Of a DNA stretch of 64,000 nucleotides, positions 3,262 to 61,315 are shown piece after piece. The stretch spans positions 32,391-96,390 of the forward strand of contig JAMPXO010000003.1 in NCBI GenBank assembly GCA_023701125.1. The letters run 5' to 3'. The notes below the pieces were generated by a model. It saw nothing but the letters and a program-made list of their open reading frames with translations. It was not told the origin of the DNA and searched no databases. Position 1 is the first letter of the stretch; the number at the start of each line of letters is the position of its first letter. This DNA comes from Vicinamibacteria bacterium (GTDB taxonomy: Bacteria > Acidobacteriota > Vicinamibacteria > Fen-336). A program made the translations under genes and the position numbers.

Positions 3262-4362
3262 ATGAGGGTTGCGAGAGGCTTCCTGCCCGCCCTGGCGTTC
3301 TGTGCCGTCGTCCCCTCCATCGGCGCCGCCCAGCCCGCGAGCGGGCCCGTCTGGCTCAAGGGCAGCCTGCACACCCACACCGATCGCAGCGACGGCGACA
3401 CCGCGCCGGAAGTGGTCGTGCGCTGGTACCGGGAGCACGGCTACGGCTTCCTCGCGATCACGGATCACGACCGGATCACCGAACCGGCGCCACTCGCGGA
3501 AGCCGCGGGTCCCGACCTGCTGCTAGTCCCGGCCGAAGAAGTGACCGGCCTCGCCCTTCCTTCCGACGGGCGCAAGGTCCCGGTCCACGTCAACGCCTTC
3601 GTTCCGCGAGAGGTGATCCCACCGTTCAAGGGGGGCACGCCAGCGGAGGCGCTCGCGCAGAACGTGGCGCGGGCGCGGGCGGCGGGGGCCCTGGTCCTCG
3701 TCAATCACCCCAACTTCGGCTGGGCGCTGACGGCGGACGACCTGAAGGCCGCGGCCCCGGGCTTCCGCCTGCTCGAGATCTTCAGCGGCCATCCGCTCGT
3801 CCACTTCCTGGGCGGCGGCGGCGCGCTCTCGGCGGAGGCGCTGTGGGATGCGTTGCTCACGGCCGGCCACCGCGTCCACGGCGCCGCCGTCGACGACTCG
3901 CACCACTTCGCGGGCGAGTGCACGCCGGCCCGCGCCTGCCCGGGCCGCGGTTGGGTGGTCGTCCGGGTTGCCGAGCGCACACCCGCGGCCGTGCTGGCGG
4001 CACTCGAGCGCGGCGACTTCTACGCCTCGAACGGTGTCGCCCTGCGCGACGTGCGGGCGACCGAGGCCAGCCTCGAGCTGACGATCGAACCGCAGAAGAG
4101 CTTCCGTTATCGCACGGAGTTCGTGGGCTCCGGTGGCCGCGTGCTGGCCTCGATCGAGGGCGAGTCCGCCTCCTGGCGCTTCAGGGGCGACGAGGGCTAC
4201 GTTCGCGCCCGCGTCACCGACTCGATGGGCCGCCGGGCCTGGACCCAGCCGGTCTTTGTCCCGGACGGGGGCTTGGGGGCGGAGGAGCTGCGTTCGCGAC
4301 TGAGCCCCCATGGGACCGGCGCCGGGCTCCGCCCGGTGTCGGAAACCGACGAATCGCGCTGA
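3262..4362 (+). CDS. PHP-domain (CehA/McbA-like) metal-dependent phosphoesterase, secreted
   Basis: ATG 3262 is in frame within ORF 3139..4362. Signal peptide MRVARGFLPALAFCAVVPSIGAA and the motif GSLHTHTDRSDGD. The last ~30 codons come from a dispersed repeat. Confidence 0.75.
   Translation: MRVARGFLPALAFCAVVPSIGAAQPASGPVWLKGSLHTHTDRSDGDTAPEVVVRWYREHGYGFLAITDHDRITEPAPLAEAAGPDLLLVPAEEVTGLALPSDGRKVPVHVNAFVPREVIPPFKGGTPAEALAQNVARARAAGALVLVNHPNFGWALTADDLKAAAPGFRLLEIFSGHPLVHFLGGGGALSAEALWDALLTAGHRVHGAAVDDSHHFAGECTPARACPGRGWVVVRVAERTPAAVLAALERGDFYASNGVALRDVRATEASLELTIEPQKSFRYRTEFVGSGGRVLASIEGESASWRFRGDEGYVRARVTDSMGRRAWTQPVFVPDGGLGAEELRSRLSPHGTGAGLRPVSETDESR
4267..4347 (+). repeat. dispersed copy of the 85-bp GC-rich hairpin repeat family
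   Basis: gggggcttgggggcggaggagctgcgttcgcgactgagcccccatgggaccggcgccgggctccgcccggtgtcggaaacc. Near-identical to 60277-60358 and homologous to the tandem units at 56306-56560. Confidence 0.8.
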
Positions 4363-54183: not shown

Positions 54184-56298
54184 GTGGCCACGACCGCCCT
54201 CAGCCAGGAGACCGGACTCGACCGCCAGACTCTGGTGGGGATCTACCGGACGATGTACCAGTCGCGCCGGGTCGACGACAAGGAGATCCAGCTCAAGCGC
54301 CAGAACAAGATCTTCTTCCAGATCAGCGGCGCGGGCCACGAAGCGGTGCTGGCGGCGGCGGGCCTCGTGCTCAAGCCCAACCACGACTGGTTCTACGCGT
54401 ACTACCGCGACCGCGCGCTGATGCTGGCGCTGGGCATGACGCCGCTGGAGATGCTGCTCTCCGCGACCGGCGCCGCGGACGACCCGAACTCCGGCGGCCG
54501 CCAGATGCCCTCGCACTGGGGTCACGCGGGCCTCAACATCGTCACCAAGTCTTCGCCCACCGGCACCCAGTTCCTGCAGGCGGTCGGCTGCGCGGAGGCC
54601 GGCATCTACGCTGCCGCCCAGGAGGGAGCCGGCACGAAGCTCGGGCTGCCCTTCCGCTCGGACGAAATCGTGTACGTCTCGACCGGCGACGGCACGACGT
54701 CCGAGGGCGAGTTCTGGGAGAGCCTCAACACCGCCTGCAATCGCAAGCTGCCCGTCCTCTACCTGGTCGAAGACAACGGCTACGCGATCTCGGTCCCGGT
54801 CGAGGTCCAGACGGCCGGTGGCAGCATCTCGAAGCTGGTCTCTTCCTTCCCCAACCTGCTGGTGCGCGAGGTGGACGGTTGCGACCCGCTGGCGAGCCTC
54901 GGCACCCTGCGCGAGGCGGCGACCTGGTGTCGCGAGCGACGCGGGCCTGCGCTCGTCCACGCCAAGGTGATCCGGCCGTACTCGCACTCGTTGTCCGATG
55001 ACGAGGCCCTGTACCGCCCCGGCCACGAGCGCGAGGCCGACGCGGCGCGCGACCCGCTGGTCTCCTGGCCGGCCTTCCTGCTACGCGAGGGACACGCGAC
55101 CGAGGCCGAACTGGAGGCGCTGCGCGCCGAGGTCGACCGCGAGGTGGCCGAGGCCGGCGATCTCGCCTGTGCCGCGCCCCAGCCCGAGCCGGCTTCAGCC
55201 CTGCTCCACGTCTACTCGCCCGAGGTCGACCCGACCTCGAAGGCGTTCGACACCGAGCCGGCCTTCGCGGGCGATCCCAAGACCGTCGTCGACCTGCTCA
55301 ACGCCTGCCTGCACGAGGAGATGGCTCGCGACCCGCGGGTCGTCGTCTTCGGCCAGGACGTCGCCGACTGCAGCCGCGAGGACAACCTGCCCCACGTCAA
55401 GGGCAAGGGCGGCGTGTTCAAGGTCACCCACAACCTGCAGCGGCGCTTCGGCGGTGAGCGCGTGTTCAACTCGCCGCTGGCCGAGGCCAACATCGTCGGC
55501 CGCGCGATCGGCATGGCCACCCGCGGGCTGAAGCCGGTGGTCGAGATCCAGTTCTTCGACTACATCTGGCCCGCGTACATGCAGATGCGCAACGAGCTGG
55601 CGCTGATCCGCTGGCGCTCGAACGGGGCGTTCAAGTGTCCCGCCGTCGTGCGCGTGACCTACGGCGGCTACCTCCAGGGCGGCGCCGTCTATCACTCCCA
55701 GTGCGGTGAGGTGCTGTTCACCCACATCCCCGGCCTGCGGGTCGTGCTGCCGTCGAACGCCGAGGATGCGAACGGCTTGCTGCGCACCGCGATCCGCTGC
55801 GACGACCCCGTGCTCTTCCTCGAGCACAAGCACCTGTACCGTCAGACCTACAACAAGGGCCGCAACCCCGGCCCCGACTACTGCATCCCGTTCGCCAAGG
55901 CGCGCACGGCGCGGCCCGGCAAGGACCTGACGATCGTCACCTTCGGCGCGCTCGTGCAGCGCAGCCTGGTGGCCGCCAAGCAGGTGGCCGAGAGCGACGG
56001 CATCGAGGCCGAGGTGATCGACCTGCGCACGCTGTCGCCCTACGACTGGGACGCGATCGCGGAGAGCGTGAAGCGCACTGGCAAGGTGATCGTGGCCCAG
56101 GAGGACCAGATCTCCTGGGGCTACACCGCGGAGATCGCGGCCCGCATCTCGGACGAGCTGTTCGAGTGGCTGGACGCCCCGGTCAAGCGCATCGGCGCCA
56201 CCGACACCTTCGTCGGCTACGCGCCGTCGCTCGAGGACTTCATCCTGCCCCAGATCCCGGGCATCGCCGCGGAGATCCGCAAGCTCGCCCGCTATTAG
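54184..56298 (+). CDS. 2-oxoacid dehydrogenase E1 component, fused alpha+beta subunits (TPP-dependent)
   Basis: GTG 54184 lies 8 nt after GGAGG. TPP motif [15 protein letters not shown]. The beta-like half carries [13 protein letters not shown]. 704 aa. Confidence 0.85.
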
Positions 56299-56305
56299 GA
56301 CTAGG

Positions 56306-56560
56306 TGGGGGTGCGGGGGCGGAGGAGCGTCCGTTCGCGCCGTAGCCCCCGCGGGACCGGCGACGGGTTCACCCCGGCGCTGGAACCCTATGGGGGTGCG
56401 GGGGCGGAGGAGCGTCCGTTCGCGACGTAGCCCCCGCGGGACCGGCGACGGGTTCACCCCGGCGGTGGAACCCTATGGGGGTGCGGGGGCGGAGAGCGTC
56501 CGTTCGCGCCGTAGCCCCCGCGGGACCGGCGACGGGTTCACCCCGGCGCCGGAACCCTAT
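56306..56560 (+). repeat. three head-to-tail copies (85, 85, 84 bp) of a GC-rich hairpin repeat
   Basis: Units start at 56306, 56391 and 56476. Unit: tgggggtgcgggggcggaggagcgtccgttcgcgccgtagcccccgcgggaccggcgacgggttcaccccggcgctggaacccta. They differ by 2-3 substitutions and a 1-nt deletion. Internal 8-bp stem gcgggggc/gcccccgc. Confidence 0.95.
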
Positions 56561-56928
56561 GGCTTGCTCGTGCCGGCTCGGCCGTAGCGGTCTTCGAGGC
56601 GGACGACGTCGTCCACCTCGGGCGTCGAGACCTCGAGGATGTCCGTGTCCTCGAGTCCGGTCATGCGGTGCAGGGTGCCGGGCGTGATGTGGTAGCTCTC
56701 GCCCGGGGCCATCTCGACCCGGCGCAGCTCGCCCGGCTCGTCCTTGCCCTTGACCTCGAACAGCAGCTTTCCGCTCTGGATCAGGATCGTCTCGTCCTTG
56801 ACCTCGTGGTACTGGAGGGACAGGCTCTCGCCCTTCTTCACGTGCAGCAGCTTGCCCACGTAGCGCTCGGTGCGCGCCCACCAGACCTCGTGCCCCCAGG
56901 GCTTTTCGACCCGCTTGTGCTCGGTCAC
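56557..56928 (-). CDS. cupin-domain protein (mannose-6-phosphate-isomerase type II C-terminal-like)
   Basis: KPWGHEVWW...SLQYHEVKDETILIQSG...PGTLHR cupin motifs. 123 aa. Confidence 0.8.
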   Translation of the reverse strand: MTEHKRVEKPWGHEVWWARTERYVGKLLHVKKGESLSLQYHEVKDETILIQSGKLLFEVKGKDEPGELRRVEMAPGESYHITPGTLHRMTGLEDTDILEVSTPEVDDVVRLEDRYGRAGTSKP

Positions 56929-58984: not shown

Positions 58985-59379
58985 GCCTTGCGCGGCTCCA
59001 GCAGTTCCGACGCCACGTGGATGGCCGCCTGGCCGTACTCGCGGATCGCCCGCGCGACGACCTTGAGCTCGCCGTCGCGCAGGCTGGAGAGCTTGATCAG
59101 CATCGGCAGGTTGACGCCGGTGACGATCTCGACGGTCGGCCCCATCGAGGGCAGCGCCAGGTTGGTGGGCGTGCCGCCGAACATGTCCGTCAGCACCAGC
59201 GCGCCCTCGGCGCCGACATCTGCGATCGCCTTCTCCACGGCCTCGCGGGCCGCCACGGGGTCGTCGCTCCAGCCGATCGAGACCGCGGCCGAGAGCGGAA
59301 GCTCGCCCACGATCTGGGTGGCCGCCGCCACCAGCTCGGAGGCCAGCCCGCCGTGGGTCACGACCACGATCCCGATCAC
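58981..59379 (-). CDS. PTS EIIA component, mannose/fructose family
   Basis: GTG 59379 overlaps the rapZ stop (GTGA). IGIVVVTHGGLA with the phospho-His. 132 aa. Confidence 0.8.
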   Translation of the reverse strand: MIGIVVVTHGGLASELVAAATQIVGELPLSAAVSIGWSDDPVAAREAVEKAIADVGAEGALVLTDMFGGTPTNLALPSMGPTVEIVTGVNLPMLIKLSSLRDGELKVVARAIREYGQAAIHVASELLEPRKA

Positions 59380-60248
59380 GACAGCCTCGCGTCGCGATGG
59401 CGGACCTGGACGCCGTAGCGGCCCTTGCGAAGGGCCTCGCCGATGCGGGTCGCCAGCATCACCGAGCGGTGGCGGCCGCCGGTGCAACCGACTGCGATCG
59501 TCACGTAGCTCCTCCCTTCCTTGCGGTGCCGAGGCAGCACGAACGCCAGCAGCCCCATCACCTTGCGCAGGAACCGCGCCGTGTCCGGCTGGGCGTCGAG
59601 GAAGCGCTGCACGGGGGCCTGCTCGCCTGTCAGCCGCCGCAGCCGCGGCACGAAGTTGGGGTTGGGCAGGAAGCGGGCGTCGAACACCAGGTCCGCCTCG
59701 GCCGGCACCCCGTACTTGTAGCCGAACGAGGTGACGGTGACCATCATCGGCGCGTCCGCCGTGCGGGCGCCGAAGCGCTCCCGCACCCAGGCCCGCAACT
59801 CGTGGACCGTGAATGCCGAGGTGTCGACGATGCGGTCGGCGGTCTTGCGGATCGGCCGCAGCGCCTCGCGCTCCTGGCGCAGTCCCTCGACCACCGGCTC
59901 GTCCACCGCCAGCGGGTGCGGCCGCCGGGTTTCGCTGAAGCGGCGAACGAGGGTGCGCTCGTCGGCCTCCAGGAACAGCAGCTCGACCGGCAGCCCGCGC
60001 TGGCGCAGGCTGCGCAGCGCCGTCGGGAACTGGCGGGTGAAGGCGGGCTCGCGCAGGTCCACCACCAGCGCCGCCCTGCGCAGGCTGGGCGTGTCGCGGA
60101 TCAGCTCCGCGAAACGGGGGATCAGGGCGGTCGGCAGGTTGTCGACGCAGAAGAAGCCGAGGTCCTCCAGTGCGCGCAGGACGTGCGTCTTGCCGGAGCC
60201 CGAGAGCCCGGTCACGATCACCAGCTTGTCGGTCTGCTCGGCCTTCAT
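59376..60248 (-). CDS. rapZ: RNase adapter / nucleotide-binding protein RapZ (YvcJ)
   Basis: ATG 60248. Walker A GLSGSGKT, DLGFFCVDNLP, C-terminal GCTGGRHRSV. 290 aa. Confidence 0.9.
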   Translation of the reverse strand: MKAEQTDKLVIVTGLSGSGKTHVLRALEDLGFFCVDNLPTALIPRFAELIRDTPSLRRAALVVDLREPAFTRQFPTALRSLRQRGLPVELLFLEADERTLVRRFSETRRPHPLAVDEPVVEGLRQEREALRPIRKTADRIVDTSAFTVHELRAWVRERFGARTADAPMMVTVTSFGYKYGVPAEADLVFDARFLPNPNFVPRLRRLTGEQAPVQRFLDAQPDTARFLRKVMGLLAFVLPRHRKEGRSYVTIAVGCTGGRHRSVMLATRIGEALRKGRYGVQVRHRDARLS

Positions 60249-61315
60249 GCCCGCCCCCGCGCCGCCTTCCGCCGTGTGGGGGCTTGGGGGCGGAGGAGCT
60301 CCGTTCGCGACGTAGCCCCCATGGGACCGGCGACGGGCTCCGCCCGGCGTCGGAACCCGTCGGCCGCTGGCCCGGCGATGATCGCCTCCAGTCGGTGGGC
60401 GAAGCGCTGCGCGCCGTCGAGGCCCCGCTCCTTGAGCAGGTGGTTGCGAGCCGCCACCTCGATCAGGATCGCCAGACTGCGGCCGGGCGCCACCGGCATC
60501 CGCAGCCGCGGCACGTCGACGCCCAGCACGTCGACGCTCTCCTGCTGGAGCCCGAGACGGTCGTACTCCTTGCCCGGCTCCCAGCGCTCGAGGTCCACCA
60601 CCAGCTCCACGCGCTGGCTGACCCGCAGCGACGAGACGCCGTACAGGTCGCGGATGTTGATCACGCCGAGGCCGCGCAGCTCCATGTGGTCGCGCAGCAG
60701 CAGCGGCGAGGTGCCGACCAGGGTGTCGCCGATGCGCTTGACCTCCACGACGTCGTCCGCGACCAGCCCGTGGCCGCGGTCGACGAGGTCGAGCGCGCAC
60801 TCCGACTTGCCGATGCCGCTCTCGCCGCTGATCAGCACGCCGAGGCCGAAGACGTCGACCAGCACGCCGTGCAACTGCGCCCGGCGCGCGAGCTGCTCGT
60901 CGAGGTACGCCGTCAGCCGCTTGATGAACGGCGTCGACTCCAGCGGCGTCACCAGCAGCGGCACGCCGCGGCTGTCGGCCGCCTGGACCAGCTCGCGTGG
61001 CGGCGGCAGGCCCTTGGTGACGACGAAGCAGGTCACGTCGCAGGCCGCCAGCCGGGCCAGCAGTCGCCGGCGGGCCACGGCCGACAGCTTCTGGAGGTAG
61101 GTCGACTCGCTGACGCCGAGGATCTGGACGCGACCGTAACGCAGGTACTCGAAGTAGCCGGACAGCGCCAGCCCGGGCCGCTGTACGCGCGACTGCAGGA
61201 TGGCGCGGGCGAGGCCGGTGCGGCCGGCCACCAGCCGCAGCTTCAGCTCCGCTCGCCGCTCCCGCAGCAGGCGGCGGACGCTGACGGCGGGCTCCGGTGC
61301 CGCCTTCCCCGCCAC
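60245..61315 (-). CDS. hprK: HPr kinase/phosphorylase with repeat-derived C-terminal extension
   Basis: Walker A GESGIGKSE, LVADDVV, GLGVINIRDLYG. The ORF reads through the repeat and stops in an ATGA overlap with rapZ. Confidence 0.85.
   Translation of the reverse strand: MAGKAAPEPAVSVRRLLRERRAELKLRLVAGRTGLARAILQSRVQRPGLALSGYFEYLRYGRVQILGVSESTYLQKLSAVARRRLLARLAACDVTCFVVTKGLPPPRELVQAADSRGVPLLVTPLESTPFIKRLTAYLDEQLARRAQLHGVLVDVFGLGVLISGESGIGKSECALDLVDRGHGLVADDVVEVKRIGDTLVGTSPLLLRDHMELRGLGVINIRDLYGVSSLRVSQRVELVVDLERWEPGKEYDRLGLQQESVDVLGVDVPRLRMPVAPGRSLAILIEVAARNHLLKERGLDGAQRFAHRLEAIIAGPAADGFRRRAEPVAGPMGATSRTELLRPQAPTRRKAARGRA
60277..60358 (+). repeat. dispersed copy of the 85-bp repeat family, embedded in the 3' end of hprK
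   Basis: tgggggcttgggggcggaggagctccgttcgcgacgtagcccccatgggaccggcgacgggctccgcccggcgtcggaaccc. About 90% identical to 4267-4347 by eye. Confidence 0.8.

Follow-up and report, generated by a model that had tools for sequence, protein, structure and literature searches.

How can a dispersed palindromic repeat come to lie inside a coding gene of an operon and leave both the reading frame and the overlap with the following gene unbroken? This question is raised by the 3' end of hprK in a stretch of 64,000 nucleotides (nt) from contig JAMPXO010000003.1 of the Vicinamibacteria bacterium assembly GCA_023701125.1 (positions 32,391 to 96,390 of the forward strand; hereafter the window), where an earlier note, made from the letters alone, had placed a repeat copy in the last part of hprK, ahead of an ATGA overlap with rapZ. 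That placement is borne out here, the coordinates being in agreement and the repeat family supported by nhmmer. We consider it very probable that an element resembling the repetitive extragenic palindromes (REPs) and the Rickettsia palindromic elements (RPEs) inserted recently into the tail of hprK, that it is tolerated there, and that the ancestral coupling to rapZ stayed intact. The parts of the locus, all on the minus strand, are:

60245 to 61315, minus strand: hprK coding sequence, HPr(Ser) kinase/phosphorylase of 356 amino acids (list of open reading frames, Pfam, exact database match P0001).
60377 to 61315, minus strand: conserved HprK core, residues 1-313, with a long C-terminal helix at its end (...AARNHLLKERGLDGAQRFAHRLEAII) (Pfam, AlphaFold, homologue alignment).
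60359 to 60376, minus strand: first part of the ancestral tail, AGPAAD, six codons upstream of the insertion, whose final CGAC precedes the element (aligned to the empty alleles).
60278 to 60358, minus strand: inserted repeat copy, exactly 81 nt or 27 codons (GFRRRAEPVAGPMGATSRTELLRPQAP), its boundary ambiguous by 1 nt (absent from L081, L082, L001 and L002, present in L083; nhmmer E = 1.3e-23).
60248 to 60277, minus strand: second part of the ancestral tail, TRRKAARGRA, ten codons, with the G-rich run that lies upstream of rapZ among them (kept in the empty alleles).
60245 to 60248, minus strand: ATGA overlap of the hprK stop codon TGA (60247-60245) with the rapZ start codon ATG (60248-60246) (sequence).
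59376 to 60248, minus strand: rapZ coding sequence, 290 amino acids, followed by a GTGA overlap with an EIIA(Man)-like gene (Pfam, sequence, gene calls of L083).

The evidence that carries this reading comes from alleles in which the segment is missing. The contigs L081 and L082, 93-95% identical in DNA to the window on both flanks, show 81 nt as their sole difference in length, the distance between fixed anchors being 138 nt in the window versus 57 nt in both of them; the flanks are collinear between filled and empty alleles and the frame downstream of the insert is the ancestral one. In the protein alignment P0123 (96% amino acid identity), P0124 (92%), and P0121 and P0002 (85%) have exactly 27 residues fewer, L001 and L002 (85% amino acid identity) encode an HprK of 329 amino acids from which the segment is absent, and 329-residue members are also contained in the 90%-identity cluster to which the window protein belongs. 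The earlier note had allowed that orthologues from genomes lacking the repeat might carry the same C-terminal tail; the close orthologues, at 329 amino acids, do not have the insert. Since the segment is missing from every outgroup, it was gained in the lineage of the window rather than lost elsewhere, and by this comparison of alleles the hprK copy is best described as a recent insertion.

The same comparison changes the anatomy of the tail. The repeat had been taken for a C-terminal extension of about 40 residues, whereas it contributes 27 residues (320-346 of HprK) inside a pre-existing tail of 16. Alleles without the insertion carry this 16-residue tail after ...RLEAII (e.g. AGPTPGARRRASRGRA), and the window tail reads AGPAAD, then GFRRRAEPVAGPMGATSRTELLRPQAP, then TRRKAARGRA, with AGPTPG, AGPPPA or AAGAGK as the counterparts of the first part in the 329-residue alleles and ..RRRASRGRA, ..RRQAARGRA or ..ATSARGRR as those of the last; tryptic peptides expected from the window tail include AEPVAGPMGATSR and TELLRPQAPTR. 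With 30 nt between the insertion point and the hprK stop downstream of it, the coupling signal was never touched: the final ten codons and the (A/T)TGA overlap are, as far as the aligned alleles tell, ancestral and untouched. In relatives the overlap is ATGA in L081 and TTGA in L082 and L001, and the gene calls of L081-L083 all place a 4-nt overlap between hprK and rapZ. Thus the filled and empty alleles uphold the proposal that a repeat was inserted within the operon, the hprK frame and the ATGA overlap being left unbroken. As hprK is the only site that offers filled and empty alleles for a comparison of this kind, it could also be established that no target duplication is present there, the 21 and 33 flanking nt adding up to 54 nt, the length found in the empty allele; a 3-nt duplication considered from the GTC...GTC flanks of two copies was dropped on this ground.

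That the tail could take up such an insert is in keeping with what is predicted for this part of the protein. The genomes nearest to the window are metagenome-assembled ones of Vicinamibacteria/Acidobacteriota. The window HprK matches NCBI MCM2254315.1, 'HPr(Ser) kinase/phosphatase [Vicinamibacteria bacterium]', at 100% identity and belongs to the HprK/P family by its P-loop GESGIGKSE and by both Pfam domains, PF02603 Hpr_kinase_N (E = 3e-33) and PF07475 Hpr_kinase_C (E = 4e-66), each scoring above its curated cut-off. These domains stop at residue 308, and no Pfam family covers the tail. AlphaFold, run with an alignment of 60 sequences as input, yields a good model of the core, predicts the last helix at residues 281-313 with a high predicted local distance difference test score (pLDDT), closing with ...RLEAII at residue 313, and gives residues 319-353 a pLDDT below 50 and no secondary structure. 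Arg-rich, low-complexity tails of very variable length are present in all 120 HprK homologues listed, most of them unnamed metagenome proteins and the named ones from Vicinamibacteria or Acidobacteria; measured from the AARN motif, which 88 of the proteins matched, the tail spans 31-85 residues, with 69 in the window protein and 42 in its closest relatives. None of the 120 tails contains the repeat peptide. We know of no such Arg-rich tail in the well-studied HprK/P proteins of Firmicutes. Therefore the insert is predicted to sit in an unstructured tail of variable length, in line with one of the two options of the earlier note, that of a tail tolerated or disordered; the element itself is open in five of its six frames in most copies.

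The repeat is a family of its own. Five copies lie on one strand of the window, at three loci: 4266-4353, 56306-56392, 56391-56477, 56476-56562 and 60277-60363, with nhmmer E values of 1e-20 to 1e-23 and pairwise identities of 66-98%, while the search pattern returned zero matches in shuffled sequence. A scan of metagenomes with a 26-base core pattern added five further distinct loci, and more copies were found in L095 (two) and L096; the roughly 13-kb loci L001-L007, from relatives at 85% identity, contain none, which is too little sequence to judge their genomes by. The scan of the whole window against Rfam matched no family and therefore the repeat is not a known RNA. The features of the family in the window, hairpins being placed on the hprK copy, are:

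4266 to 4353, minus strand: second locus, whose antisense frame is a C-terminal extension of about 31 amino acids of a CehA/McbA-family metallohydrolase (about 3262-4362, plus strand) (nhmmer, translation).
56306 to 56562, minus strand: three tandem copies of an element variant, with periods of 85 and 84 nt (pattern and nhmmer matches).
60323 to 60358, minus strand: hairpin 1, an imperfect 13-bp palindrome, GGGTTCCGACGCCGGG-CGGAG-CCCGTCGCCGGTCCC (RNAalifold consensus, pair counts).
60284 to 60322, minus strand: hairpin 2, an outer stem TGGGGGC...GCCCCCA around a 5-bp hairpin (loop CGCGA), plus a bulge containing CCUCC (consensus fold, covariation).

Both hairpins are supported by the alignment of ten copies, in which 89% of the pair cells are paired versus 36-54% when the partners are slid, and in which four pairs show compensatory changes, a covariation score that none of 500 shuffles matched. 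Hairpin 1 has 91% of its pair cells paired and two of the pairs with compensatory changes, to which L096 adds a further apparent one by inspection; in hairpin 2 a U-A/C-G exchange occurs in the outer stem and a C-G/A-U exchange in the inner one. Folded as single-stranded DNA, single copies are more stable than shuffled sequence in five of six folds (four of the five copies), with z = -2.3 to -5.8, the fold listed with hairpin 2 having z = -3.5. Of the ten full-length copies outside the tandem array, nine have CG(A/T)C in front of them (CGAC in five and CGTC in four, with CCAC before the diverged L095 copy), whereas ATA stands before the tandem variant; at hprK, pairing of the GAC with a GTC downstream is possible. 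No convincing conserved terminal inverted repeats were found in the copy alignment, and the candidate pair GGGCGGAG/CTCCGCCC was discarded as a weak match, not retained in the tandem variant. Presence/absence polymorphism was seen at hprK and at the junction of the CehA/McbA and HD-domain genes. A dispersed mobile palindromic repeat, REP/RPE-like in the generic sense, is what the copies, the polymorphism and the hairpin potential of the ten sequences describe.

The earlier note had also held that the repeat elsewhere sits in intergenic DNA, which is true of it in part only: the tandem array adjoins a cupin gene at its stop codon, whereas the copy at 4266-4353 is read as a C-terminal extension and the family is often in frame in genes. 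The units of the array, 87-98% identical, stand head to tail and occupy nearly all of the 258-nt gap between two convergent genes, a dehydrogenase E1-like one with its stop at 56296-56298 and the cupin gene (56557-56928, minus strand) with its stop at 56557-56559; the TAG of the latter is located at the 5' junction of the array (CATAG followed by GGTTCC), and the same CATAG joins the tandem units. The CehA/McbA copy, read on the antisense strand as DGGLGAEELRSRLSPHGTGAGLRPVSETDESR, lies 17 nt downstream of where a convergent, minus-strand HD-domain gene has its stop. The CehA/McbA homologues end 4-9 residues past W[T]QP in 91 of 109 cases, and the window protein 36 residues past it.

Besides hprK, about ten other genes carry the family in frame, internally or at their end. 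The CehA/McbA orthologue of L095 has two copies, an internal, diverged one (1191-1271) that inserts 36 residues into the loop LALPA/DGRKVPVHV and a C-terminal one (1968-2050) in the orientation opposite to that of the window copy; P0128 has six residues, GLGAEP, resembling an element remnant at the same internal loop, and L094 a 28-nt remnant (3507-3534) at the C-terminal site, which suggests insertion hot spots in this gene, followed by partial deletion. In L087 (295-381) the element adds 29 residues between PGERG and ELLLRGP of an acyl-CoA synthetase whose flanks align unbroken to residues 247-341 and 341-486 of PDB 8weu, and in L090 (834-920) it lies between BNR repeats of a 650-residue protein. 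A phmmer search with a 35-residue antisense-frame peptide of the window against 1.84 billion cluster representatives, an undercount since each 50% cluster is represented by one protein, yielded four new hosts: P0247, with a GDE_N domain and four copies (two tandem sense and two antisense); P0248, without a Pfam match; P0250, with an Nmad2 domain and the copy at its C-terminus; and the membrane protein P0251 (L096 883-969), from the same metagenome as L083. A fifth match was rejected as an unrelated TPR-repeat protein, and a 58-column profile of two translated frames retrieved nothing at E <= 1 from the protein database.

Two regularities of these copies bear on how the frame is kept. As counted from the alignments, the near-consensus internal copies available as DNA, those of L087, L090 and L096, have an 81-nt core, and the 80-nt and 82-nt variants, which result from 1-nt indels, are intergenic or C-terminal. 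Furthermore, nearly all in-gene copies are read in two frames, GFRRR... in the sense and GGLGAEEL... in the antisense direction, and in both the element begins and ends at a codon boundary, with the flanking GAC or GTC forming a complete codon. In the 34.6 kb of coding sequence of the window 588 of 788 CGAC/CGTC sites (75%) are in the phase xxC-GAC and 475 of 716 GTCG/GACG sites (66%) in phase 0, a bias that follows from the G/C-rich third codon positions. On the reading that we consider very probable, a small, non-autonomous and hairpin-forming mobile repeat of 81 nt with two imperfect palindromes landed in the 3' end of hprK. It is tempting to propose, on these grounds, that it inserted immediately 3' of CG(A/T)C and without target duplication, as do IS200/IS605-type or REP elements; an insertion of 3n nt behind this tetranucleotide would usually begin at a codon boundary, and the phase bias together with the 3n length may thus explain why nearly all in-gene copies share the same two frames. 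On the favoured reading the insert persists because little harm comes of it: it brings 27 codons in a frame devoid of stops, falls after the last HprK helix in an already disordered Arg-rich tail of variable length, and, 30 nt ahead of the stop, leaves the last ten codons and the ATGA coupling overlap intact. Other members of the family behave likewise. The CG(A/T)C could be either the target, as in IS200/IS605-type insertion, or a part of the element, like the 'CGTC tag' of Di Nocera et al. The insertion is probably neutral, and the translated 27-residue peptide probably has no function of its own.

Other explanations of the locus have to be weighed against this. Since the source genome was assembled from a metagenome, and since mis-assembly typically strikes at repeats, an artefact, be it a mis-joined contig or the hidden frameshift or stop considered in the earlier note, might simulate an in-frame repeat; the separate assembly L083 (JGI 3300037810), however, is 99.85% identical to the window over 3356 nt (about five differences) and has the same 81 nt in the same place, which, with both flanks collinear with the empty alleles, a length difference of exactly 81 nt and an ancestral downstream frame, makes an artefact so improbable that it deserves hardly any weight. 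That the inserted allele is intact and identical in two assemblies might on the other hand be taken to mean that the 27-residue peptide is a functional module conferring a new property on HprK, such as a binding site or an altered regulation of the oligomer, and similar speculation surrounds the Rickettsia RPEs, whose insertions appear compatible with protein folds (PMC10969869). We regard this as very unlikely, for the peptide is predicted to be disordered and lacks any Pfam family, relatives at 92-96% identity function without it, and other proteins translate the same DNA in other frames or from the other strand, which places the conservation at the level of DNA.

A further possibility, raised in the earlier note as a hairpin acting on the ribosome-binding region of rapZ, is that the hairpins of the element, once transcribed, alter the ratio of hprK to rapZ expression, either by pairing of its C-rich 3' part (CCUCCGCCCCC...GCCCCC) with the G-rich run that precedes the rapZ start or as a barrier to RNA decay or a partial terminator within the operon. 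REPs downstream of genes are indeed thought to act as RNA elements (PMC3733652), and in the minimum-free-energy fold of the junction CCGCCCCC of the element pairs with GGGGGCGG just upstream of the rapZ ATG. The energies needed to open rapZ positions -18 to +3, calculated in four sequence contexts, were:

Window, with the insertion: 18.7-20.7 kcal/mol.
Window, 81 nt deleted in silico: 12.9-18.6 kcal/mol.
L081, natural allele without insertion: 12.5-16.6 kcal/mol.
L082, natural allele without insertion: 18.2-19.0 kcal/mol.
L001, natural allele without insertion: 15.4 kcal/mol.

The inserted allele is thus the most closed of all, but the naturally empty L082 is closed to an equal degree, every allele is strongly structured, and the junction fold is no better than that of shuffled sequence (z = -0.68). 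Accordingly we did not adopt the idea that the element occludes the start region of rapZ, the effect being small and overlapping the natural empty alleles, and the hairpin proposal has no clear support. Neither an intrinsic terminator with its U-tract nor a sigma-70 promoter was found in or near the hprK insert, and unrelated genes, in which a regulatory role is implausible, harbour the same element in the one orientation or the other. Altogether we hold an effect of the element on the hprK:rapZ ratio to be unlikely, though less so than a functional peptide. Initiation at rapZ probably depends, in all alleles, on the ribosome that terminates at the overlapping stop.

Several points nonetheless weigh against the reading of a tolerated insertion of a mobile element. 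A screen of seven extra open reading frames of the window identified no transposase (six encode a hydrolase, ParB, a radical-SAM enzyme, RecN/SMC, a methyltransferase and an acyltransferase, and the seventh had no match), and mobility is deduced from the dispersal of the copies and their presence/absence polymorphism. The compensatory changes are few, four pairs in ten sequences. CG(A/T)C may belong to the element, as the empty hprK alleles have CGGC at that place and the tandem variant has ATA. The HprK tail is known from the gene sequence and the AlphaFold prediction. Finally, opening of the rapZ start region costs 0-6 kcal/mol more with the insert than in the synthetic deletion, depending on the context, and a mild regulatory side-effect is conceivable.

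As regards the genes around the insertion, the product of rapZ has the RapZ-like_N (PF03668) and PapZ_C (PF22740) domains that define RapZ, and the gene order rpoN-hprK-rapZ-EIIA(Man)-HPr-ptsI is that of an rpoN-linked cluster of the phosphotransferase system. The hprK start adjoins the rpoN stop directly (61316/61315), and 4-nt stop/start overlaps chain hprK, rapZ, EIIA(Man) and HPr down to about 58715: ATGA at 60245-60248, GTGA at 59376-59379 and a third between EIIA and HPr. From this layout the entire regulatory cluster appears to be translationally coupled.

The phenomenon as such is known: intragenic, in-frame REPs and RPEs, as well as REP termini supplying TAG stops, have already been described (PMC3733652, PMC10969869), and REPs tagged with GTAG or CGTC include copies at the ends of open reading frames in several phyla (PMC3733652). 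In its behaviour the element most resembles the RPEs, the 'selfish DNA in protein-coding genes', in that it is short, dispersed and hairpin-forming, occurs both between genes and in frame in unrelated ones (PMC10969869, PMC3733652), adds roughly 30-50 hydrophilic residues in loops or termini by which the host protein is not destroyed, and has no transposase of its own; this behaviour is seen in HprK, CehA/McbA (twice), the acyl-CoA synthetase, the BNR, GDE_N and Nmad2 proteins and two unnamed proteins. However, the RPE hosts are AT-rich, obligate intracellular alphaproteobacteria and not a free-living acidobacterium of roughly 70% G+C, RPE-1 measures about 100-150 nt versus 81 nt here, and it is for the present element only that a simple reason for landing in frame can be proposed, namely CG(A/T)C and the codon-phase bias. 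The likeness is one of behaviour, an analogy and not family membership, the element having no match in Rfam.

The CGTC-tagged REPs (Di Nocera et al. 2013, PMC3733652) share with it an apparently unpaired tetranucleotide of the CGTC type before a G+C-rich hairpin with a 5-nt loop, a location mostly near the 3' ends of genes or between convergent genes with some copies intragenic and in frame, the supply or abutment of stop codons by some copies, and the lack of a known associated transposase (PMC3733652). On the other hand, their tag is CGTC (or TGTC/CCTC) and here CGAC in five copies, CGTC in four and CCAC in one, with ATA in the tandem variant; their stem is of 8-9 bp, starts with A-T and has a 4-5-nt loop and a short CCA-like tail, versus an imperfect 13 bp starting GGG/CCC; their unit is a single palindrome of 20-40 bp or an inverted dimer, versus an 81-nt composite of two different hairpins; and Acidobacteriota are not among the phyla reported for them. 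The element thus falls outside the structural definition of the CGTC families, differing in stem and size and, in part of the copies, in tag. With the IS200/IS605-derived palindrome-associated elements and the REPs mobilized by REP-associated tyrosine transposases (REP/RAYT) it has in common the lack of target duplication, an adjacent conserved tetranucleotide and hairpins near the ends, although the GTAG tag is absent, no Y1 (HUH) transposase was found in the screened parts of the window and the mechanism is one that we infer; its mode of insertion is compatible with either family. [quoted passage not shown] Among the papers that full-text searches returned on Vicinamibacter or Acidobacteria and such repeats, no title or abstract describes elements of this kind, and as far as the papers searched show the family appears to be undescribed. 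What is new is a matter of details: the family, its high rate of occurrence in genes and the codon-phase explanation.

Palindromic elements that lie in frame inside genes have been known chiefly from Rickettsia and from a few Proteobacteria rich in REPs. The present findings extend a Rickettsia-like behaviour to an abundant and little-studied soil phylum, with filled and empty alleles at hand for comparison, and offer a testable explanation of frame preservation by a tetranucleotide tag or target, a 3n length and the codon-phase bias. For annotation, it follows that hprK should not be trimmed and that its tail should not be assigned a new function, and the family is a practical caution to those who call genes or cluster proteins in metagenomes of high G+C content. 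The family could also serve as a natural system in which selfish DNA seeds disordered protein segments. It is a tentative thought, one that we put at somewhat under even chances, that in Vicinamibacteria, free-living soil bacteria of high G+C content, an undescribed family colonises coding genes as routinely as RPEs do, each insertion of 81 nt 3' of CG(A/T)C, which in about 70% of cases coincides with a codon boundary, adding a disordered loop or tail of 27 residues. If this were true, it would provide a general route from selfish DNA to new disordered protein segments, that of HprK, a central kinase of carbon regulation, included.

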